A stretch of DNA of 64,000 nt from Bacillota bacterium (GCA_023410715.1 JAEYPN010000014.1:21032-85031); one strand, 5' to 3'. Numbered from the stretch's first letter, positions 21,242 through 36,428 are shown. Notes: a model not told the origin generated them from the letters alone. A program made the numbers and translations.

Positions 21242-21254
21242 AGAGGGTAAAATC

Positions 21255-22640
21255 ATGAAAAATTACGATGTAGTTATAGTTGGTGGAGGTATTTCTGGCG
21301 TTATGGCGGGAGTTCAAGCAGCGCTAGAAAACGCGAAAACCTTAATAATTGAAAGATTTAGTTCGCTTGGTGGAATGCTTACAAATGGTGGCGTAAATCC
21401 TATGATGACATTTCATGCTGGCGAAAAACAAGTTGTCCAAGGATTACCAGAAGAATTAATTAAAAGATTAGTTAAAAGAGGTAAATCAGTTGGTCATGTT
21501 TTTGACACTACTACTTATACCTACACAGTAACTCCTTTTGACCCTGAAGGAATGAAACAAGAATTAGAAATGATGGCTTTAGAAGCTGGTTGTGATATTT
21601 TATATAATACGATGCTTTTAAAGACGTTTGTTTCAGAAAAAAAACTAACAAAAATTCAAGTATTAAATAAAAGTGGTATCACAGACATTTATTCCAAAGT
21701 GTTTATTGACGCTACTGGAGATGCGGATTTATCTTATCAAGCTGGGGTTAAAACCCAGCTTGGTAGAGTTAGTGATAATAAAATGCAACCACTAACTATG
21801 AATATGCGAATGGCTAATGTTGATATTGATCAACTTAGAAACTATATAAAAACACATTTAGAACGTTTCCCTAAATATAATAATGATCCAAGTATAATTG
21901 ATAAAGCTTGTAAATTATCATTTAGCGGGTTTGAAAAAGAAATAAATCAAGCGATTGTAGATAAAAGGTTATCGTTCTTAAGAGAGTGCGTCTTGTTATT
22001 TGAAACAAATAATAAAAATGAAATTAATGTAAACATATCTAGAGTTAAAGATATTGATGCAACAAAGGAAGAAGAAATTACAAAAGCAATAATTGAAGGA
22101 AGAAAACAAGTAAGAGAAATAGAAGCTTTTTTAAAACAAGATATTCCTGGTTTCAAAGATAGTTATCTATTATCAAGTGGCCCAACAATTGGGGTAAGAA
22201 GCTCACGTCAAATAATTGGTGTTCATGTTTTAAATGAAAATGAACTACTAAAGCAGGATAGGTTTTATGATGTTATCTGCCATGGAGGCTATCCAATTGA
22301 CGTTCATCCTCCAGAGGGACATGATAAGTTTGTCGACTGGTCGAAAGTTAAAAGACATTTAAACTATGGGGAATATTATAGCGTTCCATATCGTTCAATA
22401 ATCAATAACGATGTAGAAAATATTATTACGGTTGGTAGATGCATATCCGCGACTTTTGAAGCTCAAGGGGCAATTCGCGTATCACCTATTAGCGCAGCGA
22501 TTGGTGAAGCTGGTGGTGCAGCCGCATCACTTATGGTTAAGTATAACCTAGAAAGAACAACTGATGTTAACTATAAAGAACTCCAAAAAGTATTAATCAA
22601 ATATAAAGCTTATTTAGAGGTGGAAGAAAATGACATATAA
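21255..22640 (+). CDS. FAD-dependent oxidoreductase (FAD_oxidored/GIDA-like fold), paralogue 1
   Basis: The ATG at 21255 follows AAGAGGG; the ORF-track extension back to 21138 overlaps the upstream gene. YDVVIVGGGISGVMAG dinucleotide motif. C-terminal GRCIS..QGAIRVSPISAAIGEAGGAAAS. Confidence 0.85.
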   Translation: MKNYDVVIVGGGISGVMAGVQAALENAKTLIIERFSSLGGMLTNGGVNPMMTFHAGEKQVVQGLPEELIKRLVKRGKSVGHVFDTTTYTYTVTPFDPEGMKQELEMMALEAGCDILYNTMLLKTFVSEKKLTKIQVLNKSGITDIYSKVFIDATGDADLSYQAGVKTQLGRVSDNKMQPLTMNMRMANVDIDQLRNYIKTHLERFPKYNNDPSIIDKACKLSFSGFEKEINQAIVDKRLSFLRECVLLFETNNKNEINVNISRVKDIDATKEEEITKAIIEGRKQVREIEAFLKQDIPGFKDSYLLSSGPTIGVRSSRQIIGVHVLNENELLKQDRFYDVICHGGYPIDVHPPEGHDKFVDWSKVKRHLNYGEYYSVPYRSIINNDVENIITVGRCISATFEAQGAIRVSPISAAIGEAGGAAASLMVKYNLERTTDVNYKELQKVLIKYKAYLEVEENDI

Positions 22641-23988
22641 TAAAAAGATTGAAGTAAACAAAAATTATGACGTAATTGTTGTCGGTGGGGGAACATCAGG
22701 TGTTATCGCAGCTATATCAGCAGCTAAAGAAGGTATGAAGGTTTTAATTCTTGAAGAATTATCATCTCTTGGTGGTACACAAACTAATGCGCTTGTAACT
22801 CCAATCATGGGTGCAAGAGTAAATGGTGCGACAGCTCATGGCAGTATTTCTTATGAAATCAATGAAATGTATCAAGAAATTGATGGACATTTATCAGATT
22901 CATCAACAAGCTTAACTTATTTTTTCCCAATGACAATGAAAATTGTCTATGCAAGAATCATTGAAAAATATGGAATTGATGTTTTGTACAATGCAAAATT
23001 TGTTGACGCAATAAAAAAAGATGATGAGATTGATTATTTAGTCGTAGCGTTAAAACTTGGATTACAAGGTTTTAAGGCACAAGCTTATATTGATACAACA
23101 GGTGATGCTTTAGTAGCTTTATCATTAGGTGCTGCAAACGTCATGGTTTATGAAGAAACCGGTCGTAATCAAGCTGTATCATTAAGATTTGAATTAAATA
23201 ATGTTGACTTAGATAAAACAGGAAAAATGATGGAAGAGTTAGGGCAACCATATAGACTTAAATATCCATTCTTAAGTTTAGGACGTCAATATATTGCGCC
23301 ACTTCTAGAAGAAGGCGTAAAAAATGGCGATTTATTACCTTTAGATTTATCTCATTTTCAAGCTTTCTCTATGCCTGGAAAAGTTAATACTTTATGTTTT
23401 AACTGTCCTGAATTAGGTGTGTTAGATAATGTTTTTGATGATTTTGAAATGTCAAAAAAAGTTAATTATGGTTATGAAGCAGTTTTAAGAATGGCAACAT
23501 TTGTTCGTAAATATTTTAAAGGTTGCGAAGATGCGACTGTGTCTAATATTGCTTCAATGGTTGGGGTTAGACAAAGTGTAGCGTTAGATGCATTATATAC
23601 ATTGACCATTGAAGAAGTATTTGCCTATAAAAAGTTTAATGATGGTATAGCATTTTCAAACTATCCAGTAGATATTCATGGCGCTAAAGAAATGAAACTA
23701 GAATATGATTTAAGTCTTCCTATTTCAGAAAGATATTATGAGATTCCTTTTAGAACTTTAATTCCTAAGACTATTAATAACTTAATTGTTGCTGGTCGTT
23801 CAAGTGGATTTGATTTTGGAGCTCAATCATCAGCTCGTGTTCAACACACTTGTCGTGCAATGGGAGAAGCAGCAGGAATCGGGGCATCATTAATGGTTAA
23901 AAACAATCTTAACAATAAAGAAATTAATGGTGAAGAGGTTAGAAAAATTATTTTAACAAGAGGAGGCGATTTTCCTGAAAACGCATAG
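22630..23988 (+). CDS. FAD-dependent oxidoreductase, paralogue 2
   Basis: YDVIVVGGGTSGVIAA; C-terminal GRSSG..SSARVQHTCRAMGEAAGIGAS. 11-nt overlap with paralogue 1. Confidence 0.85.
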   Translation: MTYNKKIEVNKNYDVIVVGGGTSGVIAAISAAKEGMKVLILEELSSLGGTQTNALVTPIMGARVNGATAHGSISYEINEMYQEIDGHLSDSSTSLTYFFPMTMKIVYARIIEKYGIDVLYNAKFVDAIKKDDEIDYLVVALKLGLQGFKAQAYIDTTGDALVALSLGAANVMVYEETGRNQAVSLRFELNNVDLDKTGKMMEELGQPYRLKYPFLSLGRQYIAPLLEEGVKNGDLLPLDLSHFQAFSMPGKVNTLCFNCPELGVLDNVFDDFEMSKKVNYGYEAVLRMATFVRKYFKGCEDATVSNIASMVGVRQSVALDALYTLTIEEVFAYKKFNDGIAFSNYPVDIHGAKEMKLEYDLSLPISERYYEIPFRTLIPKTINNLIVAGRSSGFDFGAQSSARVQHTCRAMGEAAGIGASLMVKNNLNNKEINGEEVRKIILTRGGDFPENA

Positions 23989-25309
23989 TATCAACCGCGA
24001 GGTTAATTTAAACGAAGAGTATGAAGTAATTGTAGTCGGCGGTGGACCATCAGGGGTCGCTGCATCCATATCTTGTGCAAGACAAGGAAAAAAAGTTTTG
24101 CTTATTGAAGCATCAGGCTCTTTAGGTGGAATGGCCACAATTGGCCTAGTTCCTGCTTGGTGTCCTTTTTCTGACAAAGAAAAAATTATTTATAAAAGTA
24201 TTGCTGAAGAAATTTTTAACTTGGCTAAAGAAGGAGTTCCTTTCGTTGATCCAAAACGTCTTGACTGGGTACCAATTAATAAGGAACAGTTTAAACTTGT
24301 TTGTGATAAATTAGTCATGAATAGTAACGTTGATGTATTATTTAATACATTTGTTACTGGTGTTGACTTAACTGATGAAAGAAATATTGATTGCTTATAC
24401 ACTGCATCAAAAAAAGGTCTAGAAGCATATAAAGCTAAAGTATACGTTGATGCTTCCGCTGATGCTGACTTAGTATATTTTGCTGGTGGTTCTTTCTTGA
24501 AAAATGAAGGAAATCAATCAGCTACTCATTGTTTTATCTTAAGTAATATTGACATAGAAGCATATAAAGCTTATGGCATAATGCATAATGACAATAAAAA
24601 TTGTTTTATTCATGATATTGTTAAAGATCCTAAGTATCCCAACATTGATTCAAGTCATTTCTGCAACAACATCATTGGTCCTGGTACACTTGGGTTTAAT
24701 GCTGGACATATTCTAGAGGTTAATCCGCTAGACCCTAAATCTATTTCTAAAGCCTTAATGGAAGGACGTATTAAAGCGCATGAGTATTCAATGGCTTTAA
24801 AAGAATACTATCCTCAAGCTTTTAAAGATAATTATTTAGTCGAGACCGCTCCAGCACTTGGTATTAGAGATTCAAGAAGAATCGAAGGAGATTATGTTCT
24901 AACAGTTGAGGATTATGAAGCTAGAAGAACATTTGAAGATGAAATAGGTCGTAATTCATATTATATCGACATTCATAGAACCGTTAAGGAAATGGAACTT
25001 GAAAAAGAAGGCTTAATTCCTAAACCATATGAAGAGGTTCATCGATATGGTAAAGGCGAATCACACGGTATTCCTTATCGTTCACTTGTACCAAAAAGTC
25101 TAGATAACGTTGTTGTATGTGGTAGATCAATTTCTACCGATCGCGCTGTTCAAGGTTCTGTAAGAGTTATGCCAACATGCTTTGTAACCGGAGAAGCTGC
25201 TGGATTAGCTGCCGCAGTAGCGCTTGAAAATGAAAGTATTAATATGCATAAAATTGATGTAGAAAAACTAAGAAAAATCTTGATAGAACGTGGAGCGTAT
25301 ATCAAGTAG
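23975..25309 (+). CDS. FAD-dependent oxidoreductase, paralogue 3 (probable non-canonical CTG start)
   Basis: The ORF track starts at TTG 24098, which removes the YEVIVVGGGPSGVAAS dinucleotide motif encoded at 24020-24067 in the same frame. The frame is open from 23957 and contains no ATG, GTG or TTG. CTG at 23975 lies 8 nt after AGGAGG (23961-23966). Confidence 0.7.
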   Translation: MKTHSINREVNLNEEYEVIVVGGGPSGVAASISCARQGKKVLLIEASGSLGGMATIGLVPAWCPFSDKEKIIYKSIAEEIFNLAKEGVPFVDPKRLDWVPINKEQFKLVCDKLVMNSNVDVLFNTFVTGVDLTDERNIDCLYTASKKGLEAYKAKVYVDASADADLVYFAGGSFLKNEGNQSATHCFILSNIDIEAYKAYGIMHNDNKNCFIHDIVKDPKYPNIDSSHFCNNIIGPGTLGFNAGHILEVNPLDPKSISKALMEGRIKAHEYSMALKEYYPQAFKDNYLVETAPALGIRDSRRIEGDYVLTVEDYEARRTFEDEIGRNSYYIDIHRTVKEMELEKEGLIPKPYEEVHRYGKGESHGIPYRSLVPKSLDNVVVCGRSISTDRAVQGSVRVMPTCFVTGEAAGLAAAVALENESINMHKIDVEKLRKILIERGAYIK

Positions 25310-25318: not shown

Positions 25319-28318
25319 ATGAAATCCTTTATTCACAAACATAAAAAGATTACATCCTGGTTATGTGTTGTGCTTGCGTTGACTTTATTTTTTATCGTTA
25401 GAGGTCTTGTGGCCAAAGAAAAAGTTGATGAGTTATCATATCATACGCCATATTACAAAAACGATAATATTTTGGAACCAAGTTATAGTGAATATTTGCG
25501 AAGCTTAACGTCAAAAGCTTCTGGAACAACAAATAAAACAGTTAATTATAAAGACTTTGTGTTTAATAATAATCTAGAAGTTATTGACGATGAAGCAGTT
25601 AAAATAAATAACAAAGAACAACTTAAGGTAAAGTTTTCTAATTATCAGGCAGGAATGTATAATCTATCTATAAATTTCATGTATGATGGTAATGATATTT
25701 TACCTATCAAACTTGCAATTTTAGTTAATGGCGAATATCTATATTATGAATTAAGATCAGTTAATCTACCAATTAAATGGCAGGTTAAGGATTCATATAA
25801 AAAGATAGGTGCTATTCAAAATGAATTTAATTTTTCAAGTGACCGTTATGGGAATGACCTACAACCAAACACCGAAATTATTAGTGAATTTAAGGATACT
25901 TATGTTTATGATAGTAGCTATTACCATATTAATCCTTTAATGTTTTATTTAGATGGTGAAGAAATTGAATTTACTATTAAATCACTATCAGATAACATTA
26001 TTATAAAAGATATTAGTATTCTAAAGCCTATTGAAACTATTTCTTATTCAGAGTATAAAGAAAACCAAAGCAATGTTGAATTAGCTAAAAATACTATTAC
26101 TCTTGAATCAGAATATTATTCATATAAGAGTGATCCATCAACAAAGCTTTCAAGTGATACTAATGCTAATTCAACTCCATATAAAACAAGTAAAAAATTC
26201 CTAAATTCCATTGATTCAGCAACCTTCAATTCACCAGGACAAAGCATTTCTTGGGAATTTAATGTGCCAGAATCAGGTTATTATTATTTAACATTTAAGT
26301 ACATTCAAAATACAAATTTAGATATGCCAGCATTTAGAGAAATATTAGTGGATGATGAGTTATTGTTTAAAGAACTTCAGGATTATTCTTTTCAATACAC
26401 AAGCAATTGGAAAAATGAAACCATTAATATTGATGGCGAAAATGTAGCTTTTTATTTTTCTAAAGGAACCCACAGCATTAGTTTAAGAGTTAGTATAGAA
26501 AAATATAGGGAAGTTATTGAGTCTTTACAAAGTGTAATTAGGGATATTAATGATTTAGCTTTAGATATAAAAAAATATACCGCAGGTACTTCAACTGATG
26601 CGGACAGAGATTATTCAATGCTTGATGTAATTCCTGATTTAGTGGAACAATTAACGAAAATGAGGAATACCATTGATAATGCTTATCGTTATGCTAATTC
26701 ATTAAATGATAGCGAGTATGTATCAACAGATTTAAATAGCTTAAAGTTATCAATTGAAACACTAGATGAATTTATTGAAGATCCTAACACAATTGCTACA
26801 GAATTAAGCAAGTTTTCTGAAGGATCATCTTCTATATCACAATACTTAAGCACTCAAATTTTAGACCTTACAACATCACCACTAGGGTTAGAAAAAATTT
26901 ATTTAAATAATGATAGTAAATTACCAAAAGCCAAAGCTAGTGGTTTTAGAACATTCTTTGAAGAAATTAAGAAATTTTTCTTGTCATTTAAAAACAATGA
27001 ATATAACGATCTAGAAAATGATAGTGAAGCAATTAACGTTTGGGTTAACCGTCCAAGAGTTTATGTTGAGTTAATGCAACAAATGATTGATGAAGGTTTT
27101 ACTAAAGAAACAGGAATTAAAGTAAAACTATCATTAATGCCAAGTACAAATAAACTTGTTCTAGCAAACGCAGCCGGTCGTCAACCAGATCTGGCGATGG
27201 GTGTGGGATCATCAACGACATTTGAATTTGCGTTAAGAGAAGCTGCCGTCGATTTTAGACAGTTTGAAGGTTATGAAGAGATTGTTAAAAACTTTTCAAA
27301 AGGTGTAATGATTCCATACGTTTATAATGATGGCGTTTATGGCTTGCCAGAAGTTCAAAGCTTTTATTTAACATTTTATCGCACCGATATTTTAAATAAA
27401 TTATCACTTGGTGATAGTATTCCAAATACGTGGGATGATGTTAAAGCTATTTTACCGGAGTTACAAAATTATGGTATGAACTATTATATACCACTAGCAT
27501 CAGATACAGCATATAAGAGTTTTTCCTTTACTTTACCTTTCTATTATCAAAATAGAGCAGGCCTTTACTCAGCTGATGGTACAAAGACCGTTATTGATTC
27601 TGAAGAAGGTATTAAGGCAATGAAACTTATGACGGAGTTATTTACAACTTACGCCTTACAAGCACAAGTATCAAGCTTTTACAATCATTTCCGTTATGGA
27701 ACAATTCCAATTGGTATTTCAAGTAACGATACTTATGTTAAGTTATTAATTGCTGCTCCAGAAATCAAAAATAACTGGTCAATTGCTTTATATCCTGGCG
27801 TTCAAGATGAAACAACAGGTGAAATTTTACGCTATGCCCCTGTATCATCTTCAGGTGTAATGATGTTTAAAACTGATCGTGATCAAAATAAAGTATTTGA
27901 ATTTGTTAAATGGTGGTTTAAAACCGAAGTTCAAGAACAATTTGCGTTTGATCTTCAAACTATGTATGGTAAGGAATTTATTTGGTTTACCTCAAATAGA
28001 GAAGCTTTCAAAACTTTATCTATTCCGGAAGAACATAAAGATATTATTTTAAATCAATGGGACTGGGCAGCTGAAGCTCCTAGTGTTCCTGGCTCATATA
28101 TGTTAGAAAGAGAAATCTCAAACTCATGGAACAAAATTGCGTTAAACAACCAAAATATTCGGGATACGCTAGAAACTGCTGTTATAACAGTTAATCGCGA
28201 GTTAGAGCGAAAATTAGAAGAATTTAAATATATTAAAGATGGAATAAAAGTTAAGGACTATATAATTCCAACAGCTGATAATATTGATTATTGGCTGAAG
28301 GAAAGAAAGGGTGATTAA
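25319..28318 (+). CDS. Membrane-anchored 999-aa protein: two CBM-like beta-sandwich modules, a helical linker and a C-terminal ABC sugar-binding (family 1 SBP) domain
   Basis: N-terminal TM anchor [14 protein letters not shown] with no lipobox. The two modules contain [13 protein letters not shown] and [12 protein letters not shown]. The SBP-like part starts at about [31 protein letters not shown]. Confidence 0.75.
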
Positions 28319-29273
28319 TGTGGAAGATGTAAAACAAACTAATTTTTTCTATAATCTAAAAGAAAAATTGACTAAATCAAAAACATTAAAAGGTGCTTCT
28401 CCTCTTTCAATAATCGCCTTTTTAGGACCATACTATGTTTTATTCTTTATTTTTATTGTTTTAAGTGTTGGGGCTGCCATTTATTTATCATTTACTTATT
28501 TTAATACAATTCAAGTTCCATCATTTGTTGGATTTAAAAACTATGTTAACATCCTAACTAAGGATGCAATATTTATGCAAAATGTTTTACCAAACACGCT
28601 TAAATTTGCTATCTGTGTAGGACCTGGTGGATATTTACTAGGATTCTTCTTAGCATGGAGTTTGGCACAAGTAACTCATAAAATTAGAACCGTTATGGCA
28701 ATTGTTATTTATTCACCATCAATGGTTTCAGGTGTTACAATGGCAGTTATTTGGAAAGTATTTTTTAGTGGTGATGTGACTGGTTATTTAAATAATTTTT
28801 TAATTAATCTAGGGTTGATTGAAAACCCGGTTCAGTGGTTACAGTCAACAAAATATTTAATGCTCATTATGATTATCGTATCTTTATGGGGATCGATGGG
28901 CGTTGGATTCTTAGCGATGTTATCAGGTATTTTGAATATTAATCAGGAAATCTTTGAAGCTGCGTATATTGATGGAATCAAGAACAAAGCTCAAGAAATT
29001 TTCTATGTAACTATTCCTTCAATGAAACCACAGATGTTATTTGGGGCCGTTATGGCGATTGTAAGTACGTTTAAATCCGGGGCCATTGGAGTGCAACTAT
29101 CAGGCTCTAACCCAACGCCACAATATGCTGGACAATTAATTATCAATCATATTGATGATTATGGCTTTATTAGATATGAAATGGGTTATGCCGCTGCCTT
29201 ATCAGTTGTTTTACTTTTAATAATCTTAGTATTTTCTAAAGTAGCAACAAAGTATTTAACAGAAAGGGATTAG
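28311..29273 (+). CDS. Carbohydrate ABC transporter permease (CUT1, MalF/LplB-like)
   Basis: Six TM segments. EAA loop [25 protein letters not shown]. The start is GTG 28311 or GTG 28320. Confidence 0.9.
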
Positions 29274-30152
29274 GTGAGATATATGGCTAATTTTAAAGGT
29301 ACAAAAATAAATCCATCACACTTCTCACTTTCACAAGTCAAATTTTTACTTTATTTAATACCTATTTGTCTTTTTATGGCTTTACCAATTATTTATATTT
29401 TAAATAACGCCTTTAAACCAGCAGATGAACTATTTGCTTATCCGCCAAAGTTTTTTGTTATTAAACCAACACTTAGGAACTTTACTAACCTATTTCGACA
29501 ATCATCTTCATCAGGTGTGCCTTTTACTAGATATTTATTTAATACAATAGTTACTACAATATTAGGTGTGACACTTACTCTTATTATGACAGCGATGACA
29601 GGATTTGGTTTATCAAAACTAAACTTTAGAGGAAAAAAGGCCTTATTTAAAATAAATCAAATGGCATTAATGTTTGTACCAATTGCCGTAACAATTCCTC
29701 GTTTTATTATAATTACGAAAATTGGTTTTTACAATAGCTTTTGGGCGCAGATAATTCCTGCACTTGCAATGCCGGTTGGTTTATTCTTAATTAAACAAAA
29801 TGTCGATCAAGTTCCAAATGAACTTATAGAAGCAGCTAAAATGGATGGAGCAACTGATTTTCAAGTTTTCTTTAAAATTGTTATTCCTATTATTAAACCA
29901 GCTTTAGCAACTGTCGCAATTCTTGCTTTCCAAGAATTCTGGAATAGTGAAACAGCGTCAAACTTATATATTGATAGTGAATCGAAAAAAACTTTAGCAT
30001 TCTTCTTATCAACAATTTCTGCCGGAAGTACTGTGGCAGGGAAAGGAATGGAAGCGGCCGCAACATTTATTATGTTTGTTCCTAACTTAATTATTTTTGT
30101 TTTGATTCAAAATAAGGTTATGGATACAATGGCTCATTCTGGTATTAAGTAA
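29274..30152 (+). CDS. Carbohydrate ABC transporter permease (CUT1, MalG/LplC-like)
   Basis: EAA loop EAAKMDGATDFQVFFKIVIPIIKP. The start is GTG 29274 or ATG 29283. Confidence 0.9.
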   Translation: MRYMANFKGTKINPSHFSLSQVKFLLYLIPICLFMALPIIYILNNAFKPADELFAYPPKFFVIKPTLRNFTNLFRQSSSSGVPFTRYLFNTIVTTILGVTLTLIMTAMTGFGLSKLNFRGKKALFKINQMALMFVPIAVTIPRFIIITKIGFYNSFWAQIIPALAMPVGLFLIKQNVDQVPNELIEAAKMDGATDFQVFFKIVIPIIKPALATVAILAFQEFWNSETASNLYIDSESKKTLAFFLSTISAGSTVAGKGMEAAATFIMFVPNLIIFVLIQNKVMDTMAHSGIK

Positions 30153-30153
30153 A

Positions 30154-32184
30154 ATGAAAAAGTTTAAAAGAATATTAATTGTCTTACTAGCAGGACTCAT
30201 TCTTGGATTTAATTTAACTGTAAAGGCTGAAAGTGGGGTACCATATACTACTTATACTGAAGATTCAAGGGGAAGATTAATTCCAACTCAGGATGCGTAT
30301 ATTGCTTTAAGTGTTTATAATGACTTCTTAGGAGAGAAGTTATCTGAACCAAGTGATATTTTCTTAGATAAAAATGATACTTTATATATTGCGGATGCCG
30401 GAAATAAACGAATCCTAATTATTGAAAAAGGCATCACGAATGTAAGAAGCATCAGATATGAAAAATTTATTAAGCCAACTGGTGTTTATGTTACGGATAA
30501 CTTTGATATCTACGTTGCTGATCCTAATGCCAAAGCTGTTTTCATGTTTGATAAGGATGGAAATTTTAAACAAAAATATGAAAAGCCAACAAGCATTTTA
30601 TTTGGAACAGAAACATCATATAGTCCTCAGAAGGTTGTTGTAGATAAAAGAGGTAACTTATATATTGTAAGTAATGGTAACTATAACGGTTTAATCCAAA
30701 TTAATAAATATGGGGAATTTCTAGGATATTTTGGTGCTAATAATTCACAAATTACTATGCGTCAAAAGTTAATTAAATCAATTTTCCCTAAAGAAATTGT
30801 TAGTCAATATTTTAAAGTAATTCCTTTAACACCTTATAATGTCTCAATTGATGACGATGGTTTAATTTATACAATTACTCGTGGTACAGAAAATAACGCT
30901 ATTAGAAAGTTAAATATTGGTGGCACTAATAAAATATCAAAATTAATGCGAACATCACTTACTTTTAGTGATATTACGGTTGGACCAATTGGTAATATGT
31001 ATACAATTGACGATAACGGTATGATTTATGAATATGATACTGATGGCAATTTGCTTTTTAACTTCGGTGGAAAAGATAACATCGGTATTTATAAAGGTTT
31101 ATTAAATACTGCATCAGGAATCGTTGTCGATAAAAATTATTATATTTATGTTATTGACTCAAAAAATAATGAACTTCATGTATTTATGCCAACGGAATTT
31201 TCAACATTAGTTCATGAAGCATTAGATTTATATCAACAAGGTTTATATGTTGAATCGAAAGGACCATGGGAAAAAGTCTTAGAATACAACTATATGTTTG
31301 ATCTTGCTCATAAAGGTATTGGCCAAGCTTACTTTAAAGAAGGTAATATGGAAGAAGCGATGGAACGTTTTAAAATGATTGGCGATATGAAGGGTTATTC
31401 TAATGCGTACTGGGAAGTAAGAAATGAATGGCTAGTTAATAATTTAACAACAATCTTTATTATTATTGGCGTTTTAGTTTTAATTGGATTTATTTATTCA
31501 AAATTATTTAAAAAGAAAGTTCAAAATAAGATAAAACCATTAAAAGATAAAATCTATAATAGGCCGCTTGTTAGTGAAATAACATTTGCTTTAAAAATTA
31601 GAAAAAAACCAACTGATGTAATGCAAGATATTCAAAGAAATCGAGGAATTTCTTTGAAAACCGCAATGATTTTATATGTTTTAGCATTTATCATGATGAT
31701 CTTAAAAATCTATTTTACTGGACCTTCATTTTCTAATGCTGAAACACAGTTCATCTCGTTATTCCAGGAAATGTTTAATACAGCAGCTCCAATTGCGTTA
31801 TTTATTATCGCTAACTATATGATCGCAACAATAACTGATGGCCAAGGTAAGTTTATGCAAGTTGTAAAGGCCTCAGCTTGTTGCTTAATCCCTTATATCA
31901 TTCTAACGCCAATTGGTACGATTTTAAGTAATTTCTTAACACAAAATGAAGCTTTCATTTATCAATTAATTAACACAATAACCATTGCATGGGTATTTCT
32001 TCTAATCTTCATTATGGTTAAAGATTTACATAACTATTCGTTCTGGGGAACAATTGGTAATATATTACTGACACTATTTGCTTTTGCTGTATTTGCTGTA
32101 GCAATTTTACTATTAAATAATGTTTTAGGTAGAATTATCGACTTTGTTGGACAAATCATTAAGGAGGTGTTTGCTCGTGGCTAA
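30154..32184 (+). CDS. Fusion protein: signal peptide, six-bladed NHL-type beta-propeller, TPR-like segment, TM helix and a C-terminal Yip1-like polytopic membrane domain
   Basis: Six repeats of the type D..G.(L/I)Y(I/V).D..N..I..(F/I)...G.. (for example LYIADAGNKRILII, IYVADPNAKAVFMFDKDGNF, LYIVSNGNYNGLIQINKYGEF). TPR-like segment GIGQAYFKEGNMEEAMERF. About 6 hydrophobic helices in the last 250 aa. Confidence 0.7.
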   Translation: MKKFKRILIVLLAGLILGFNLTVKAESGVPYTTYTEDSRGRLIPTQDAYIALSVYNDFLGEKLSEPSDIFLDKNDTLYIADAGNKRILIIEKGITNVRSIRYEKFIKPTGVYVTDNFDIYVADPNAKAVFMFDKDGNFKQKYEKPTSILFGTETSYSPQKVVVDKRGNLYIVSNGNYNGLIQINKYGEFLGYFGANNSQITMRQKLIKSIFPKEIVSQYFKVIPLTPYNVSIDDDGLIYTITRGTENNAIRKLNIGGTNKISKLMRTSLTFSDITVGPIGNMYTIDDNGMIYEYDTDGNLLFNFGGKDNIGIYKGLLNTASGIVVDKNYYIYVIDSKNNELHVFMPTEFSTLVHEALDLYQQGLYVESKGPWEKVLEYNYMFDLAHKGIGQAYFKEGNMEEAMERFKMIGDMKGYSNAYWEVRNEWLVNNLTTIFIIIGVLVLIGFIYSKLFKKKVQNKIKPLKDKIYNRPLVSEITFALKIRKKPTDVMQDIQRNRGISLKTAMILYVLAFIMMILKIYFTGPSFSNAETQFISLFQEMFNTAAPIALFIIANYMIATITDGQGKFMQVVKASACCLIPYIILTPIGTILSNFLTQNEAFIYQLINTITIAWVFLLIFIMVKDLHNYSFWGTIGNILLTLFAFAVFAVAILLLNNVLGRIIDFVGQIIKEVFARG

Positions 32185-34552
32185 AAGTATAATAAAAAAA
32201 TTAGTAATTGTTATATTGCTTGTTTTAATTCCTATGGTTGCGGTTAAAGCAACAACTCTAAAAGAAATTAAAGATAGTATTTATAATGTTAAGCCATCAA
32301 TTTTTGGCAATGAGATTTATAATTCTAACCGTTATACTCAAGTTGATGATTTAAGTATAAGAGATGATAGTAAAAATATTGAAATATCATCTACTGGGGT
32401 AGAAACAATTTTTTATAACGAGATTTATAAAGATGACAAGTTAATTTCTAAAAATGATAAATTAGAAATGTACTTTGATTCAAAAACCCAAATCTTTAAA
32501 ATAAAGAATATTGAGACTGGTTATATTTGGTCAAGTGCCTTCTATGAGACATCGCCAGATAACTCAGAAGCAGTTAATGCGCGTTTAACTTCGATTGCCT
32601 TAATTGAGTTTTATTCATATAATGAAGAAACAAAAAAATTAAGTAATAATTTAACAGAACATAATACGAATTACTACACTAATAAAATTGGTGTTGGTAG
32701 AAAATACATGGCTTCAGTTGAGTCATATCCAGATAATGCAAATGCTAAAGTTACACTTTTTATTGATTTCCTAATTGCTAAAATTCGCTTTGCGATGGAT
32801 GTAACTTTAAAAGAAGATGGATTACATGTTTATATTCCTAATAACCAAATAGAAGAGTATGGAAATAGCAAGTTAGCTTCTATTACAGTTTTCCCAACAT
32901 TTGGAGCAACGTGCGAGGATTTAGTTCCAGGATATTTCATTTTACCAGATGGAACTGGTGCTTTATACCGCTTTAAGGATAACGGTGACGAGCTTCAACC
33001 AATGTATAACGCAAAGTATTATGGTGGGAATATTGGACTAAAAAATGGTCAAACAAACAATTTTTCACAATATACTTTACCTTTCTATGGAAATGTTCAT
33101 GGAATTAATCAAGATGGATATTTTTGCCATATTATTGAAGGCGACAAAAATGCCAATTTAATCTTTAATCCATCAGGAGCATCAAATATTTCTTACAACT
33201 ATATAACTAATAAGTTTATCTTTAGAGAGTCATATATTTACCCAACCAGTTTATCGGAATCAGAATCTGGTGGTGGTATTAATGTGATTGAAGATAAAAA
33301 AAGTACGGATAATATTCATTTTGTTTATCAGTTTGTAGGTGGAAATGATGCTTCATATGTTGGAATTGCTAATAAATATCGTGAATATTTAATTAATAAT
33401 AACATCTTAGAGGAAAAAGAAACTAACTATGGCATGAGTTTTGAATTCTTACTTTCTGAATCAGAGTCTGGTCTATTTGGTAATAGAACATTCGCAGTTA
33501 CAAAAGTTAAAGAAGTAAAAGAAATTATCCAAGATTATATTACTAGTGGTGGAAAAATTAATAATATTGTTTTAAAAGGATGGGCCAAAGGTGGATTAAG
33601 TGGAATGACACCTTATAAGATTAGATATGAGTCCAAAGTAGGTACAAAAAATGACTTTAATGAATTAGAAGAGTATTGTACGGAAAATAACATTCAAGTC
33701 ATCTATTATAATGATTACTTAAAAACATATTCTTCAAGTAAAAGAAGTAATGAATCAAGCGATTTTGCAAGAGGCTATCATAAGTTAAAATTAAAAACAA
33801 CAATTGATAGTTATATGTATAAAGATGAATATTATTTATATCCATTTAAATCACTTGAATTTGCTAAAGAGGATGCTAAAGAATATAGTAAATTGTCTAT
33901 TGATAGTTTAGCTCTTGATTCTATTGGCTATATGTTATTCTCATATAATGATGATAATGTCTTAAATAGTAGAAGTAAAACTGCTTCATTATTTAATGAA
34001 ACATTAATTGTCTTAAATGAAAAAAATATTAAAACTTCGGTTTATCAACCAAATTACTATTTGTTAAATCAAACTGATAATTATTTAGATTATCCAATTT
34101 ATAATCTTCAGATTACCATTTTTGATGATACTATTCCATTCTTAAGTATTGTCTTACATGATACAATGGATCTTTATTCACCATTAACTAATCTTTCAAC
34201 TAACCAAGAAGAACTAGCATTATTATATCTTGATTTTGGCATCAATCCATCTTATATTCTAACTAATGATTCGACTTATAAATTAAAGTTTACTAATTCA
34301 TGGAATTTATATTCAACAATTTATAAGAACTGGAAAGATAACATTTTAAGGATGAACCAAAAAGTTAAAGGTGGTTTTGAGGAAATAAGTGGTGCTCATA
34401 TTACATCAAGACTTGTTAGACAAAAAGGTGTTGTTGAATCAGATTATAGTAATGGGGTAAAAATTATTTTTAACTATACTACCGAAGCAATTAATTATAA
34501 TGGTACGCTTATTAATCCTGTTGATTACTTATTAATTGGTGGTGATAAATAA
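32177..34552 (+). CDS. Anchored or secreted ~790-aa protein of unknown function (possibly DUF5696-type; unverified)
   Basis: GTG at 32177 lies 9 nt after AAGGAGG; the ORF-track TTG 32144 is less likely. N-terminal hydrophobic anchor LVIVILLVLIPMVAV. I recognise no catalytic motif with certainty. Confidence 0.5.
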   Translation: MAKSIIKKLVIVILLVLIPMVAVKATTLKEIKDSIYNVKPSIFGNEIYNSNRYTQVDDLSIRDDSKNIEISSTGVETIFYNEIYKDDKLISKNDKLEMYFDSKTQIFKIKNIETGYIWSSAFYETSPDNSEAVNARLTSIALIEFYSYNEETKKLSNNLTEHNTNYYTNKIGVGRKYMASVESYPDNANAKVTLFIDFLIAKIRFAMDVTLKEDGLHVYIPNNQIEEYGNSKLASITVFPTFGATCEDLVPGYFILPDGTGALYRFKDNGDELQPMYNAKYYGGNIGLKNGQTNNFSQYTLPFYGNVHGINQDGYFCHIIEGDKNANLIFNPSGASNISYNYITNKFIFRESYIYPTSLSESESGGGINVIEDKKSTDNIHFVYQFVGGNDASYVGIANKYREYLINNNILEEKETNYGMSFEFLLSESESGLFGNRTFAVTKVKEVKEIIQDYITSGGKINNIVLKGWAKGGLSGMTPYKIRYESKVGTKNDFNELEEYCTENNIQVIYYNDYLKTYSSSKRSNESSDFARGYHKLKLKTTIDSYMYKDEYYLYPFKSLEFAKEDAKEYSKLSIDSLALDSIGYMLFSYNDDNVLNSRSKTASLFNETLIVLNEKNIKTSVYQPNYYLLNQTDNYLDYPIYNLQITIFDDTIPFLSIVLHDTMDLYSPLTNLSTNQEELALLYLDFGINPSYILTNDSTYKLKFTNSWNLYSTIYKNWKDNILRMNQKVKGGFEEISGAHITSRLVRQKGVVESDYSNGVKIIFNYTTEAINYNGTLINPVDYLLIGGDK

Positions 34553-35469
34553 TGAAACTATCACAAAAAAAGCGTGAATGGCTATTTGGCTATTTATTTA
34601 CAGGAATATGGATTATTGGGTTTATTATTTTCACTTTAATACCTATCTGTCAATCATTTTTCTATAGTTTAACTGATGCCAAAGTAACAAGATTTGGTAT
34701 AGAAAATAAGAGTATTATTGGTTTCATGACTTATCGAAAAGCCATCATATCTGATGTATCTTTTGTTGAATCAATGATTACATATTTTAAGAGTATGTTA
34801 ATTACTTTAGTAGCTGTAATAGTTTTTTCTGTTATTATAGCTGTTATCTTAAATAAAAAATTCTTCTTGCGAGGTTTCTGGCGTACTGTGTACTTTTTGC
34901 CAGTAATAATTTCAAGTGGACCAGTTTTAAAAAGATTAACGAATGAAGGGGCCACTAGCATCCTTATGAGTGGTGAGTCAACAGGTTTAATTGGCTCCTT
35001 ACAAAGCAGTCTACCTGAGTTTTTTACCACAATTATTAATACTGTATTTGGGCGAATTGTGGTCATTTTATGGTTTACAGGTGTGCCTGTTTTAATCTTC
35101 TTAGCCGGACTTCAAAAAATTAACGTTAACATTTTTGAAGCAGCTAAGGTTGATGGAGCATCTAAATGGGAAATGTTTTGGAAAATTACTCTACCTTCAT
35201 TAAAACCATTAATTAACATTAACGTAATTTATACAGTTGTATCTTTATCAACCTTCTCTAATAATGCTGTACTAGGCTATATTAATAGTAAAAATATTAA
35301 TGATAAGTATGGATATTGTAATACACTAACATGGATTTATTTCCTTGTGACAATCATTGTCCTTGCTATAATTCTTTTAATCTTAAATATTGGTGGACTT
35401 AAAAGACGAAAAATTAAAGAAGTTAAGATGTATCGTGATGTACCTAAGACAGTTGAGGTGACAGAATGA
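34552..35469 (+). CDS. Carbohydrate ABC transporter permease (second pair, MalF-like)
   Basis: EAA loop EAAKVDGASKWEMFWKITLPSLKP. TAATG overlap with the upstream gene. Confidence 0.9.
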   Translation: MKLSQKKREWLFGYLFTGIWIIGFIIFTLIPICQSFFYSLTDAKVTRFGIENKSIIGFMTYRKAIISDVSFVESMITYFKSMLITLVAVIVFSVIIAVILNKKFFLRGFWRTVYFLPVIISSGPVLKRLTNEGATSILMSGESTGLIGSLQSSLPEFFTTIINTVFGRIVVILWFTGVPVLIFLAGLQKINVNIFEAAKVDGASKWEMFWKITLPSLKPLININVIYTVVSLSTFSNNAVLGYINSKNINDKYGYCNTLTWIYFLVTIIVLAIILLILNIGGLKRRKIKEVKMYRDVPKTVEVTE

Positions 35470-36428
35470 AAATAAAAGAACTTAAAGAAAAAGCAGAATA
35501 TAAAAATTTCATGGTGAAAGTTAAAACATTTTTATTTGGTAACGGGGTTAAAGAAGGAAAAATCTTTAACATCTTACTTTATGTCATAGTTTTAGCTTTA
35601 GGATTTATTTTCTTATACCCAATCATTTATATGATTTCGATGAGTTTAATGGATTTAGATGATTTACTAGATTCACAGATTAGTTGGATTCCAAGTCACC
35701 TATATTTAGATAATTACCGTTTAGCTATCAAAGCTTTAGGTTTGCCAAAAGCTTTATGGGATTCTCTAAAGGTTGTGTTGATTCCAGCTGTATTATCAAC
35801 AGTTTCATCATGTCTTATTGGCTATGGATTCTCAAGATTTAAGTTTCCAGGTAAAAATGTTTTATTTGTTATTTTGATCTTAGTTTATATTGTACCATCG
35901 CAAATAACGATTTTACCGCAGTTTGCTTGGTTTAAAAAACTAGGATTACTTGGGACACTTTGGACTTTTATTTTACCGGCGACGTTTGGGCAGGGATTAT
36001 TCTCCACAATTTACATTTTGATTTTTTATAGCTTCTTTAATATGATACCTAAGGCACTTGATGAAGCAGCATTTATTGATGGAGCAAGTGAAATCAAAGT
36101 ATTTTATGAAGTTGGTTTAAAATTATCACTTCAACCTTTTATTATTTGTATTGCATTCAGCTTTGTATGGTACTGGAATGATTTATATCATGCCTCATAT
36201 TTCTTAGCTCAATCTGATTCGAAAACAAGAACATTAATTCAGATGTTAAATATCTTTGAAAATTCATATTTACAATTAGAAGAAGTATCAGAAATGCAGA
36301 TTAAAGCTAATGAACCAGTTACTTTAGCTGGTACATTAATTTCAATCTTTCCTCTTCTTGTTGTATATTTCTTCTTACAAAAATACTTTGTTGAAAGTGT
36401 TGATTCAACAGGAATCACAGGAGAATAA
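35466..36428 (+). CDS. Carbohydrate ABC transporter permease (second pair, MalG-like)
   Basis: EAA loop EAAFIDGASEIKVFYEVGLKLS. ATGA overlap with the upstream gene. Confidence 0.9.
   Translation: MKIKELKEKAEYKNFMVKVKTFLFGNGVKEGKIFNILLYVIVLALGFIFLYPIIYMISMSLMDLDDLLDSQISWIPSHLYLDNYRLAIKALGLPKALWDSLKVVLIPAVLSTVSSCLIGYGFSRFKFPGKNVLFVILILVYIVPSQITILPQFAWFKKLGLLGTLWTFILPATFGQGLFSTIYILIFYSFFNMIPKALDEAAFIDGASEIKVFYEVGLKLSLQPFIICIAFSFVWYWNDLYHASYFLAQSDSKTRTLIQMLNIFENSYLQLEEVSEMQIKANEPVTLAGTLISIFPLLVVYFFLQKYFVESVDSTGITGE

Follow-up and report, generated by a model that had tools for sequence, protein, structure and literature searches.

The 64,000-nt stretch of DNA analyzed here (the window) carries, between positions 25319 and 34552 and entirely on the plus strand, the five genes delimited by the original prediction. 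ORF prediction recovered each of them exactly, the last as an 802-aa ORF beginning at TTG 32144 and overlapping the preceding gene by 41 nt (Table 1). Because an AAGGAGG ribosome-binding site precedes an alternative start at GTG 32177, and the resulting 791-aa protein has the length of a database copy (P0001), we set the start of this gene there, which gives an overlap of 8 nt. With this start, the predicted contiguity of the five genes, with gaps or overlaps of 10 nt or less, holds: the first gene, encoding a giant solute-binding protein (SBP), is preceded by a gap of 9 nt and overlaps that of permease 1a by 8 nt, permeases 1a and 1b adjoin with zero gap, 1 nt separates permease 1b from the NHL/Yip1 gene, and the DUF5696 gene overlaps that of permease 2a by 1 nt. 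Pfam searches also bore out the families named at the outset (SBP_bac_1/8, BPD_transp_1 twice, Yip1, and DUF5696), as well as the placement of the genes between an upstream flavoenzyme block and a downstream second permease pair.

Table 1. Cassette genes and their surroundings in the window
Feature	Coordinates	Strand	Basis
LacI-family regulator (context, not core)	11203..12297	+	Pfam LacI, Peripla_BP_3
Small lipoprotein SBP, 551 aa (displaced eighth cassette member)	17033..18688	+	Lipobox, phmmer
Locus-specific insert between small and giant SBP	18761..25309	+	Pfam, lipobox
Giant membrane-tethered SBP, 999 aa	25319..28318	+	Pfam SBP_bac_1/8, AF2, Foldseek, hydropathy
Permease 1a (MalF/UgpA/GlcT type), putative importer 1, 320 aa	28311..29273	+	BPD_transp_1, E 9e-14
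Permease 1b (MalG/UgpE/GlcU type), putative importer 1, 292 aa	29274..30152	+	BPD_transp_1, E 3e-15
NHL beta-propeller/TPR/Yip1 membrane protein, 676 aa	30154..32184	+	Pfam, hydropathy
DUF5696 protein, GH129-like, 791 aa (802 aa from TTG 32144)	32177..34552	+	PF18952, E 4.7e-139
Permease 2a, putative importer 2 (cassette member beyond the five predicted genes)	34552..35469	+	BPD_transp_1, 26.2 bits
Permease 2b, putative importer 2 (cassette member beyond the five predicted genes)	35466..36428	+	BPD_transp_1, E 1e-15
Locus-specific downstream genes	36431..42190	+	Pfam, hydropathy

The proposed co-occurrence of a large SBP, two permeases, a Yip1 protein, and a DUF5696 protein was confirmed by a search of gene neighborhoods and is strict across Bacillota. 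Hundreds of Gram-positive species have these genes in a shared order. Of at least 578 relatives, we inspected the 80 best, together with 7 further contexts, and the recurrence is far above chance expectation. Among the 80 loci fetched, all 73 complete ones share an identical gene order, which runs on into the second permease pair (34552-36428); the other 7 are interrupted by contig ends, leaving zero exceptions. The complete loci span Bacillaceae, Paenibacillaceae, Izemoplasmatales, Haloplasmatales, Acholeplasmatales, Thermoanaerobacter, and Mahella. Permease 2a lies immediately 3′ of DUF5696 in all loci of sufficient extent, and the position of permease 2b is constant across all complete loci. 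The conserved unit is one of seven to eight genes and does not end at 34552 as a five-gene module, since the second permease pair and a second, small SBP also belong to it; its usual order is small lipoprotein SBP, tethered SBP of about 1,000 aa, permease pair 1, NHL/TPR/Yip1 protein, DUF5696 protein, and permease pair 2. The 7 further contexts, reached via distant DUF5696 or NHL/Yip1 homologs, retain the cassette, with local rearrangement in one. It persists around DUF5696 homologs of 20% to 30% identity and around independently found NHL/Yip1 homologs in Turicibacter, a Caldicellulosiruptoraceae genome, and a metagenome contig, where one pair 1 permease is relocated. Three genomes carry two cassettes each, with clearly unlike flanks for one such pair (L003 and L033).

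The giant SBP matches SBP_bac_1/8 at residues 585 to 876 only. It begins with a hydrophobic helix (residues 14 to 32 by hydropathy), followed by beta-sandwiches at approximately residues 70 to 235 and 255 to 391, a helical stalk or bundle (residues 394 to 560), and an oligosaccharide-type SBP domain (residues 570 to 990). In Foldseek, its AF2 model (pLDDT 85.3, pTM 0.80) matches oligosaccharide SBPs best, among them MalE and the beta-1,2-glucooligosaccharide binding protein 5ysb (TMt 0.83). Because CBM_35 (10), Golvesin_C (8), and GH115_C (6) matches occur among 26 homologs, the N-terminal sandwiches look CBM-like, and specifically CBM35-like. The small SBP carries a signal peptide and lipobox (Cys20) and has no Pfam match of its own; by phmmer, it matches 54 of 66 ORFs that form one cluster and occupy, in 63 loci, the position immediately before the giant SBP gene, and members of this cluster match SBP_bac_1 with E values of 1e-25 to 1e-31. 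Its gene lies downstream of pair 2 in two loci (L085 and L087) and at a distant site, beside a BigIg gene, in L001, L003, and this window. As the giant SBP gene directly precedes pair 1 in every case and the small SBP gene moves, we infer that the giant SBP and pair 1 constitute importer 1 and that the small SBP, the probable partner of pair 2, constitutes importer 2 with it.

Among NCBIfam models, permease 1a is nearest to GlcT and UgpA; its EAA motif lies at residue 216, and no other cassette component is as conserved (mean pairwise identity, 0.70). Permease 1b is nearest to GlcU, UgpE, and MalG (EAA motif at residue 186; identity, 0.66). Permease 2a, whose BPD_transp_1 score is slightly below the 26.4-bit cutoff, is nearest to the GlcT/UgpA type (EAA motif at residue 196; identity, 0.53), and permease 2b, which contains the sequence EAAFIDG, is nearest to GlcU and MalG (identity, 0.55). 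Importer 1 retains identities of 0.59 to 0.70 despite changing flanks and is much more conserved than importer 2 with its small SBP, also between paralogous cassettes within one genome.

The 676-aa membrane protein matches Pfam NHL (E 9e-14) and Yip1 (E 3e-11; 44 bits, cutoff 28.6) and, weakly, TPR_1. Its extracellular side comprises a signal peptide, a propeller (approximately residues 26 to 350), and TPR-like helices (approximately residues 350 to 430), and its membrane side comprises a transmembrane (TM) helix (residues 434 to 452), a basic cytoplasmic loop, and a five-TM Yip1 domain (residues 499 to 654), as judged by hydropathy. In total, 452 homologous clusters were matched, and the 120 listed are nearly all about 660 to 700 aa long, nearly all with precomputed Yip1 and NHL matches. 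In the PDB, the ectodomain matches a consensus TPR as well as Pizza, PknD-sensor, and TRIM NHL propellers. Among solved structures, the extracellular NHL sensor domain of PknD is the closest natural relative of the propeller in sequence, alongside Pizza proteins and the NHL domains of TRIM proteins; the cassette protein differs in having no kinase domain, its propeller being followed by TPR helices and the Yip1 membrane domain.

The DUF5696 protein is extracellular, either N-terminally anchored or secreted, and a hydrophobic N terminus is found in 146 of 161 family members. Its AF2 model (pLDDT 84.9, pTM 0.86) folds into a beta-sandwich, a (beta/alpha)8-like barrel, and a C-terminal beta-sandwich. 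Foldseek places GH129 structures first (8rzk/5opq, E 4e-31, TMt 0.72; NagBb, E 9e-27), followed by GH101, GH36, and GH31. Searching with the single sequence retrieved no glycosidase, of GH129 or another family; the family profile retrieved NagBb from PDB sequences by hmmsearch (E 0.001), and HHalign related it to GH129 with 98.5% probability (E 1.9e-14). The protein shares its three-domain architecture and fold, as well as a GWaxxG motif after barrel strand 2, with the alpha-N-acetylgalactosaminidase NagBb (5wzn) and the GH129-like 3,6-anhydro-D-galactosidase DagB/ZGAL_3152 (5opq, 8rzk). Its polar residues D269, R610, N683, and N777 are invariant, and D662 is always acidic. It differs from them in its low identity (about 13%), in the lack of acidic counterparts to NagBb D435 and E478 in the alignment, in forming its own Pfam family (5,830 clusters at 50% identity), and in lying, in the contexts sampled, always inside an ABC importer cassette. 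What had been described as an 802-aa protein without assignment is therefore not simply unknown, being a remote homolog of GH129 glycosidases; it is nevertheless not a GH129 member, and we found no cassette-independent copy in the contexts sampled, so that its proposed tie to the importer genes stands.

The genes around the cassette vary. In the window, the insert upstream of the giant SBP encodes an 826-aa lipoprotein with a lipobox and TIM-barrel-like motifs, which has no assigned family, and three PF12831 FAD-dependent oxidoreductases; a paralog lies at 12294-13277. Downstream, two SASA-type carbohydrate esterases, of which the first carries a signal peptide, are encoded together with a fourth FAD_oxidored protein and a PfkB sugar kinase; a terminator-like hairpin (39804-39823) follows the second esterase gene. 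FAD_oxidored genes beside the cassette are common to L001 and L003; most other loci have glycoside hydrolases instead. Flanking enzymes across the 80 loci include GH144-like (42), GH35/GlmA-like (41), GH3 (20), SOGP/GH94 (17), and GH16 (13) proteins, and other contexts have GH20 with NagB, GH51 with ara genes, GH30, or GH2 with GH43. The implied glycans vary accordingly by locus (beta-1,2-glucan, beta-1,3-glucan, arabinan, and HexNAc). The endo-enzymes of the flanks carry lipoprotein signals, and the exo-enzymes and phosphorylases are cytoplasmic. In this window, the SASA esterases and FAD oxidoreductases make an acetylated glycan, or one decorated in another way, the probable substrate.

Among known systems, the cassette most directly recalls the CUT1 type I ABC sugar importers of Bacillota, such as MalEFG-type importers and the beta-1,2-glucooligosaccharide system of 5ysb. 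They share the SBP_bac_1/8 fold, with oligosaccharide SBPs as the nearest structures, heterodimeric BPD_transp_1 permease pairs with EAA motifs, of which the cassette has two, and an operon without an ATPase gene; no importer ATPase gene lies within the window. Operons of this kind are common in Bacillota, and the known CUT1 importers named above are energized by a shared MsmX-type ATPase. The GH144-like, SOGP, and GH3 genes of the known beta-1,2-glucan system also occur in many related loci. However, the cassette joins two importers in one fixed unit, its SBP of about 1,000 aa has an anchor, two sandwiches that look CBM35-like, and a helical stalk, and the Yip1/NHL and GH129-like proteins are always inserted between its permease pairs. 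It also resembles the polysaccharide utilization loci (PULs) of Bacteroidota, with their SusC/SusD "utilisome," and those of Gram-positive bacteria. Like them, it pairs an unchanging transport and binding core with a regulator and with glycan-degrading enzymes that are exchanged between loci, can be present as several paralogs in one genome, and involves surface-tethered glycan-binding modules and surface enzymes. In contrast to Sus, the cassette has no SusC, SusD, or outer membrane, its transport components are ABC importers, and the Yip1/NHL and DUF5696 proteins are core components without a Sus counterpart.

A precedent for a Yip1 protein acting with a transporter is YknW of Bacillus, a Yip1-family protein that modulates assembly of the YknXYZ ABC transporter (PMC4887032). 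Both systems encode a Yip1-domain polytopic protein together with an ABC transporter, and by analogy the cassette protein may act on its importers. YknYZ is, however, a MacB-type exporter with a membrane-fusion protein (MFP), whereas the cassette encodes type I importers with SBPs and carries its Yip1 domain on the same polypeptide as a large NHL propeller and TPR region outside the cell; it is accompanied by no MFP or MacB-type genes.

Since the flanking enzymes differ between loci, the cassette looks like a generic core. Starting from the gene content, synteny, extracellular or membrane locations, folds, and variable enzyme flanks that we observed directly, we give an even chance to the reading that the eight-gene, strictly syntenic cassette, with the five genes at its center, is the uptake core of Gram-positive glycan-utilization loci. 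In this scenario, locus-specific endo-enzymes, secreted or lipoproteins, would cleave the polymer extracellularly, and the tethered CBM-SBP would capture the fragments at the membrane surface, where the GH129-like protein would trim or hold them. Two CUT1-type importers, powered by an ATPase encoded elsewhere, would then import the products, importer 1 through the giant SBP and the highly conserved pair 1 and importer 2 through the variable small SBP and pair 2, and cytoplasmic exo-enzymes, phosphorylases, and kinases would complete the breakdown. On the model of YknW, the NHL/TPR/Yip1 protein would use its ectodomain and membrane domain as a scaffold that holds the parts together. The roles of the Yip1 and DUF5696 proteins are putative, as is the physical complex for processing or hand-off, which synteny alone suggests. 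The original idea of accessory components fits this arrangement, as both unusual proteins are extracellular or membrane located and their genes are embedded among importer genes. Substrate-specific uptake does not account for how well importer 1 is conserved while the flanks change, an alpha-glycosidase-like fold is an odd constant partner where loci mostly target beta-glucans, and the window has no importer ATPase gene; these points count against our scenario, as does the poorly supported conservation of the GH129 nucleophile discussed below.

Alternatively, the genes may encode co-regulated but independent parts, namely, two ordinary CUT1 importers, a secreted glycosidase (DUF5696), and an unrelated membrane protein, whose genes lie in one operon on account of a common pathway and which neither form a complex nor hand over substrates. 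We consider this possible but rather unlikely. Every component is of a known, free-standing kind, operons combining transporters and glycosidases are common in Bacillota, and in one locus (L081) the propeller and Yip1 domain are encoded by separate adjacent genes. Nevertheless, the order is invariant, with the two unusual genes always between the permease pairs while the surroundings change, and coding ends overlap. Moreover, the NHL/Yip1 and DUF5696 genes were never apart in any sampled context, and the unusual conservation of pair 1 suggests extra constraints.

A different reading concerns catalysis. The GH129 nucleophile is NagBb D435, equivalent to ZGAL_3152 D486 (PMC5698469). In our profile alignment, D435 falls on a hydrophobic DUF5696 column (M597; posterior, 0.4 to 0.6), and the GH129 acid/base likewise lacks an acidic counterpart. 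At nearby D592, no more than 58 of 79 homologs have an acidic residue, the other 21, which otherwise keep the cassette, having Gly, Asn, Ser, or Gln. DUF5696 therefore may not be a hydrolase: its catalytic activity is putative, and the GH129 nucleophile is not demonstrably conserved. In that case, the protein could be a pseudoglycosidase, a noncatalytic GH129-like shell for glycan binding or docking that, together with the NHL/TPR/Yip1 protein, acts as an importer assembly or gating factor, with importer 1 recognizing a ligand or handle that does not change and importer 2 conferring substrate specificity. The greater conservation of importer 1 would agree with this division, and an invariant set of polar and aromatic residues persists despite differing flanking enzymes. 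Furthermore, PknD- and TRIM-type NHL propellers serve as binding modules rather than enzymes. We nonetheless judge the pseudoglycosidase reading unlikely: the protein of this window has D592, D524, D540, and D662 and could be active, catalytic residues shift within the superfamily (ZGAL_3152 keeps one of the two of NagBb), and the alignment posteriors are modest. Finally, a sensory or regulatory device, in which the propeller detects an extracellular glycan and Yip1 signals to the importers or a regulator, is very improbable, because, despite the relationship to the PknD sensor domain and a LacI gene flanking the cassette in 41 of 80 loci, Pfam and NCBIfam found no kinase, HTH, GGDEF, or other output domain in the NHL/Yip1 protein, LacI regulators sense cytoplasmic sugars unaided, and DUF5696 and the duplicated importer would be left unexplained.

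In conclusion, our literature search found no mention of the eight-gene cassette, and its combination of two sugar importers, a giant SBP, a propeller/Yip1 protein, and a glycosidase-like protein is previously undescribed.

Our data place the five genes of the original prediction (a giant solute-binding protein, SBP; permeases 1a and 1b; an NHL/Yip1 protein; and a DUF5696 protein) within a larger cassette that recurs in identical order across the Bacillota. All five were found as ORFs on the plus strand with exactly the predicted extent, their Pfam matches agree with the families that had been named for them, and they are flanked, as had been described, by three PF12831 FAD oxidoreductases upstream and a second permease pair downstream. 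The tight packing also held, with neighboring genes that adjoin directly or share a few bases, given GTG 32177 as the start of the DUF5696 gene: the longest ORF, of 802 aa, overlaps the preceding gene by 41 nt, an overlap that disappears with this start, which is preceded by AAGGAGG and gives 791 aa, the length of the database copy. The end of the unit at 34552 had been set too early, as the cassette runs on through permease pair 2 to 36428.

Features of the sugar locus and its surroundings, in window positions
Feature	Positions	Remarks
Bacterial serpin	1057-2514	upstream of the sugar locus; E 6.5e-54
Two exporter-type ABC ATPase fusions	3113-6815	
CotH kinase-like protein	9157-11022	upstream of the sugar locus; E 1.4e-43
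LacI regulator	11203-12297	
327-aa cytoplasmic protein	12294-13277	paralogue of the 826-aa lipoprotein
1135-aa lipoprotein	13604-17011	three Bact_surface_Ig-like repeats; large remainder without assignment
Small SBP (lipoprotein)	17033-18688	
826-aa lipoprotein	18761-21241	
First PF12831 FAD oxidoreductase	21138-22640	ORF overlaps the upstream 826-aa gene by 104 nt
First to third PF12831 FAD oxidoreductases	21138-25309	
Third PF12831 FAD oxidoreductase	23975-25309	listed start TTG 24098
Five genes of the original prediction	25319-34552	plus strand
Giant SBP	25319-28318	999 aa
DUF5696 residues 61-68	about 32324-32347	
Permease pair 2	34552-36428	
Two tandem paralogous SASA-type proteins	36431-39767	sialate O-acetylesterase-like
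Fourth PF12831 FAD oxidoreductase	39894-41189	
ORF, 525 aa	49549-51126	no Pfam match
ORF, 419 aa	55375-56634	no Pfam match

DUF5696 homologues were aligned (7-sequence alignment) and one genome per species was scanned; the best 80 of at least 578 related loci were fetched, and the window proteins were used as phmmer queries against every ORF in them. The suspected recurrence in other Bacillota was borne out by this neighborhood survey. The order giant SBP, permease 1a, permease 1b, NHL/Yip1, DUF5696, permease 2a, permease 2b was identical, without exception, in all 73 complete loci among these best 80, the remaining 7 being cut by contig ends. Immediately upstream of the giant SBP, 63 loci carry an ORF of 450 to 520 aa belonging to a single cluster that is present in 65 of the 80 loci, whose members match SBP_bac_1 and include the small SBP of the window; in the window and its two closest loci (L001 and L003), this gene is displaced from the cassette. 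The same order in all complete loci, together with the small-SBP cluster, therefore defines the conserved unit as seven genes plus a mobile eighth. Carriers among the 80 loci comprise Bacillaceae-type genomes (34), Izemoplasmatales, Haloplasmatales, Acholeplasmatales or "Mycoplasmatota" (24), Paenibacillaceae (11), the clostridial genera Thermoanaerobacter and Mahella (3), and unclassified Bacillota or Bacilli metagenome-assembled genomes (MAGs) (8).

As an independent check, seven extra contexts (L081 to L087) were read from precomputed gene calls and Pfam labels. The same cassette surrounds distant DUF5696 proteins of 20 to 30% identity (L081 to L084), in a family that comprises 5830 clusters at 50% identity (E up to 1e-3). 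It also surrounds NHL/Yip1 homologs chosen without regard to DUF5696, from Turicibacter (L085), Caldicellulosiruptoraceae (L086), and L087. The small SBP is positioned after permease pair 2 in L085 and L087, and one pair 1 permease is relocated in L087. In L081, the DUF5696 protein has 1050 aa, and a propeller protein (672 aa, no Pfam match) and a Yip1 protein (238 aa) are separate neighboring genes (7256 to 9990 of that locus). Promoter and terminator scans were overall at chance level, and transcription unit boundaries are based solely on three terminator-like hairpins in intergenic gaps.

The genes that surround the cassette point to glycan use. Flank families among the 80 loci are GH144-like (PF10091; 42 loci), GH35/GlmA-like (41), GH3 (20), SOGP/GH94 (17), GH16 (13), and Gfo/Idh/MocA (11). 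L083 represents a textbook β-1,2-glucan set, composed of LacI, the cassette, and GH144-like, SOGP, and GH3 enzymes, and the other distant contexts are flanked by GH16 and GH3 (L084), GH20, GH3, NagB, and an acetyltransferase (L081), araA/B/D and GH51 (L085), two GH30 genes and GH16 (L086), or GH2 and GH43 (L087). Among the flank enzymes, exo-enzymes and phosphorylases are cytoplasmic, as seen for SOGP, GH3, and GH20, and lipoprotein signals are found on endo-enzymes, as on the GH144-like and GH16 enzymes of L083 and L084. Import of whole polymers for cytoplasmic endo-enzymes was accordingly rejected, as this is an ordinary layout of cutting outside and finishing inside.

A Gram-positive polysaccharide utilization locus (PUL) is defined by the co-location of a transporter and a regulator with one or more enzymes that degrade glycans. 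All of these are found in the window, which holds the LacI regulator, two importers, SASA esterases, the GH129-like DUF5696 protein, and a PfkB kinase; the enzymes of related loci are GH144-like, GH16, GH3, GH94, GH30, GH43, and GH51. The cassette loci share the logic of PULs, with a constant transport core and interchangeable enzymes. They differ from the Sus-like PULs of Bacteroidota, in which susC and susD genes are adjacent, in that no ORF of the window's locus matches the Pfam families of SusC (TonB-dependent transporter) or SusD.

The remaining genes of the window, which belongs to a genome of about 29% GC, include several unusual features. PF12831 FAD oxidoreductases and the large Ig-repeat lipoprotein, which adjoins the cassette in all three, are common to the window, L001, and L003; the oxidoreductases are shared by some but not all of the closest related loci, and four paralogs lie in one sugar operon here. 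Beyond this common set, the window carries the two SASA esterases, the PfkB kinase, and the 826-aa and 327-aa paralogs. For the first of them, ATG 21255 is the likelier start because AAAGAGGG precedes it and the Pfam match begins there, at residue 44. As listed from its TTG start, the third lacks the Rossmann motif; its frame is open upstream, encoding EYEVIVVGGGPSGVAA, and CTG 23975, 8 nt after GAGGAGG, is a plausible noncanonical start that would give a 14-nt overlap with the preceding gene. The 826-aa and 327-aa proteins, two TIM-barrel-like paralogs (BLASTP E 2e-18), have no Pfam, NCBIfam, or PDB sequence match, and their NWEGD, GEFG, and YWE(L/F)Y motifs suggest an unclassified clan A-like TIM-barrel glycosidase family. 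The first SASA protein has a signal or lipoprotein N terminus and a Ser/Thr-rich linker, and the second is cytoplasmic.

Both transporters of the cassette have the makeup of CUT1 importers. The 320-aa and 292-aa permeases of pair 1 match BPD_transp_1, each pair combines a MalF/UgpA/GlcT-type with a MalG/UgpE/GlcU-type subunit and has EAA coupling motifs, and pair 1 and permease 2b exceed the Pfam cutoff, with permease 2a just below it (26.2 versus 26.4 bits). Their nearest NCBIfam matches are GlcT/GlcU, UgpA/UgpE, and MalG, all under the equivalog cutoffs. Extracellular SBPs of the SBP_bac_1/8 type are provided by the giant SBP, from its score and structure, and by the small SBP, from its homologs. 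An exporter or biosynthesis role was rejected, since the permeases resemble those of type I importers and are accompanied by SBPs, and the flanks are catabolic and hold no glycosyltransferases. No importer-type ABC_tran gene was detected among the window ORFs scanned (those of at least 150 aa, four excepted), in which the two exporter-type fusions are the sole ABC ATPases. Bacillota importers are usually energized by a shared MsmX-type ATPase encoded elsewhere, and we assume that such an ATPase elsewhere in the genome serves the cassette importers.

The giant SBP matches SBP_bac_1/8 only at residues 585 to 876 (E 4e-18). In its AF2 model (pLDDT 85), an N-terminal helix is followed by two β-sandwiches, a 160-residue helical region, and the C-terminal SBP domain, whose closest solved structures are oligosaccharide binders: Tlet_1705, a cycloisomalto-oligosaccharide binding protein, the β-1,2-glucooligosaccharide binding protein 5ysb, and MalE. 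CBM_35 matches fall in the sandwich region of 10 of 26 homologs.

Conservation within the cassette is unexpectedly asymmetric. Mean pairwise identity across 60 loci and the window is highest for permeases 1a (0.70) and 1b (0.66) and the SBP domain of the giant protein (0.59), followed by permeases 2b (0.55) and 2a (0.53), the TPR region (0.51), NHL propeller (0.46), and Yip1 domain (0.42) of the NHL/Yip1 protein, the CBM and stalk region of the giant SBP (0.39), DUF5696 (0.38), and the small SBP (0.37). The same ranking is repeated between paralogous cassettes within one genome. Three genomes hold two cassettes each (L003/L033 of Candidatus Izemoplasma sp. B36, CP168077; L014/L073; L020/L076), and between copies permease pair 1 is 60 to 66% identical, with other components down to 31 to 49%. 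In one of these three pairs, L003/L033, the flanks are clearly unlike, being of the FAD type in L003 but of the GH16/GH5 type in L033. Gene order agrees with this asymmetry, as the giant SBP is always joined to pair 1 and the small SBP wanders or follows pair 2. We infer two importers, of which importer 1 is nearly constant and importer 2 is variable and probably sets specificity. The constraint on importer 1 could reflect a constant ligand or many protein contacts.

DUF5696 is the first of two cassette proteins foreign to the usual importer. It matches PF18952 over profile positions 14 to 612 of 612 (E 4.7e-139; 465 bits against a cutoff of 25.6), and its hydrophobic N terminus, also found in 146 of 161 relatives, indicates that it is extracellular. 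The AF2 model (pLDDT 84.9, pTM 0.86) shows a β-sandwich, a (β/α)8-like barrel, and a C-terminal β-sandwich, which is the GH129 architecture, and Foldseek ranks GH129 structures first (8rzk/5opq, E 4e-31; NagBb, E 9e-27; top entries 8rzk, 5opq, and 5wzp), followed by GH101, GH36, and GH31. While phmmer with the single protein found no GH129 in the PDB, hmmsearch with the family profile against PDB sequences retrieved the same two GH129 proteins (E about 0.001), and HHalign against the NagBb family, with genes recovered from gut metagenomes, gave 98.5% probability (E 1.9e-14, 568 columns, 13% identity). Based on the Foldseek and profile matches, DUF5696 is thus a remote, superfamily-level homolog of GH129 and not a member of that family, as the relation is seen only by profile methods and falls short of the family-level sequence similarity of CAZy GH129. 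Residues 61 to 68, after the N-terminal anchor and bordering a part of the model with low confidence, form a semiconserved S-N/S-x-F/Y-T-Q-P-E/D motif (Ser 81%, Phe/Tyr 94%, Thr 91%, and Glu/Asp 90% in 79 homologs), possibly a docking motif.

Whether DUF5696 retains catalysis is finely balanced. The first assignment of D592 as the GH129 nucleophile, by strand topology and spacing, was not borne out by the alignments: it pairs with the upstream Asp, NagBb D430; the nucleophile lands opposite residue 596 or 597 (HMMER against ZgGH129; HHalign against the NagBb family alignment); and 21 of 79 homologs lack an acidic residue there, having Gly, Asn, Ser, Gln, Ile, or Ala where the other 58 have Asp or Glu. 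The NagBb nucleophile, D435, is aligned to M597 in a hydrophobic column (posterior 0.41 to 0.58), and the region of NagBb E478, presumably the acid/base and confirmed as Glu in the sequence, is poorly aligned (posterior 0.07 to 0.10). Among the 79 homologs, D269 is invariant, position 662 (Asp in the window) is acidic in all and position 540 (likewise Asp) in 96%, and R610, N683, N777, and several Tyr residues vary little or not at all; the window's own protein carries every candidate acid. Glu592 co-occurs with Asn524 and with Izemoplasmatales GH16/GH5 loci, and we draw no conclusion on residue 592 and flank type because taxonomy and flank type are confounded. In GH129 itself, NagBb Asp435 corresponds to ZGAL_3152 Asp486, and beyond that Asp the catalytic residues are not conserved even between these two proteins (PMC5698469). 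A divergent glycosidase and a binding-only pseudoglycosidase are, judging from the alignments, roughly equally likely.

The second such protein, of 676 aa, has Pfam matches to NHL (E 9e-14), weakly to TPR, and to Yip1 (PF04893; E 3e-11, 44 bits against a gathering threshold of 28.6, residues 485 to 650). Its layout comprises a signal peptide, an extracellular propeller, TPR helices, one transmembrane helix (434 to 452 by hydropathy), a basic cytoplasmic loop, and a Yip1 core of five hydrophobic helices (499 to 654). Multiple NHL repeats are present, and the closest solved relatives, matched at residues 38 to 172 and 261 to 322 of an ectodomain query starting at protein residue 26, are the six-bladed Pizza, PknD, and TRIM propellers, which are binding or sensor propellers and not enzymes. 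A Yip1 protein, YknW, modulates the assembly of the YknXYZ ABC transporter (PMC4887032). Unlike the cassette, that exporter combines a MacB-type permease/ATPase with a membrane fusion protein, and neither domain occurs in the ORFs between 9 and 42 kb of the window.

Our preferred explanation, which we hold at about even chances, gives the cassette the role of an uptake core in Gram-positive glycan loci. The CBM-bearing giant SBP would catch glycan fragments, the GH129-like DUF5696 would trim or hold them, the two CUT1 importers would bring in the products, and the NHL/TPR/Yip1 protein might act as a scaffold, by analogy with YknW. It is less probable that the parts are independent and co-regulated, a reading against which the invariant gene order speaks. 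Somewhat less probable again is a role of DUF5696 and Yip1 as noncatalytic assembly or gating factors, with importer 1 serving a constant ligand; the near-constant importer 1 and the variable position 592 sit with it, and the preserved acids of the window protein do not obviously do so. A sensor device, suggested by the propeller's relatives, seems highly improbable.

A bolder reading, which we regard as unlikely, has all eight proteins assembling into a single membrane supercomplex that would be the Gram-positive equivalent of the Bacteroidota utilisome. Both ABC importers would be tied by the NHL/TPR/Yip1 protein to the CBM-bearing tethered receptor and the GH129-derived, perhaps noncatalytic, protein; a constant ligand or handle would be the target of the nearly invariant importer 1, and substrate specificity would come from the variable small SBP and importer 2. 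Such an engine could be reused for β-1,2-glucan, β-1,3-glucan, arabinan, HexNAc glycans, and the substrate of this locus.

The building blocks are all of known kinds: the CUT1 importer, the GH129 superfamily, Yip1, the NHL propeller, and CBM35-like modules. Their fixed combination unites two importers and a 1000-aa tethered CBM-SBP with Yip1/NHL and GH129-like proteins encoded between the permease pairs; in the literature outside subscription-only papers, we found no description of this cassette, including by way of DUF5696/PF18952, Yip1, or β-1,2-glucan clusters. The usual scheme of Gram-positive glycan uptake has a single SBP with two permeases and a shared ATPase, and to our knowledge it includes no conserved surface machinery akin to SusC/SusD. 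Here the core would be fixed and recurrent and would contain two parts that still lack an explanation, the Yip1/NHL membrane protein and the GH129-like protein; the cassette is spread over hundreds of species (at least 578 relatives, one genome per species), ranging from soil bacilli and wall-less marine Izemoplasmatales to thermophilic Clostridia and a Turicibacter MAG. Cultivable carriers exist (Fictibacillus, Paenibacillus, or Neobacillus with a GH144-SOGP-GH3 flank) in which flank genes already indicate the substrate, β-1,2-glucan. If our model is true, it would provide a functional context for bacterial Yip1 proteins and for a large DUF, DUF5696 would be a candidate for a new glycoside hydrolase family or for a pseudoenzyme descended from one, and the cassette would serve as a marker for annotating glycan utilization loci in Bacillota genomes.
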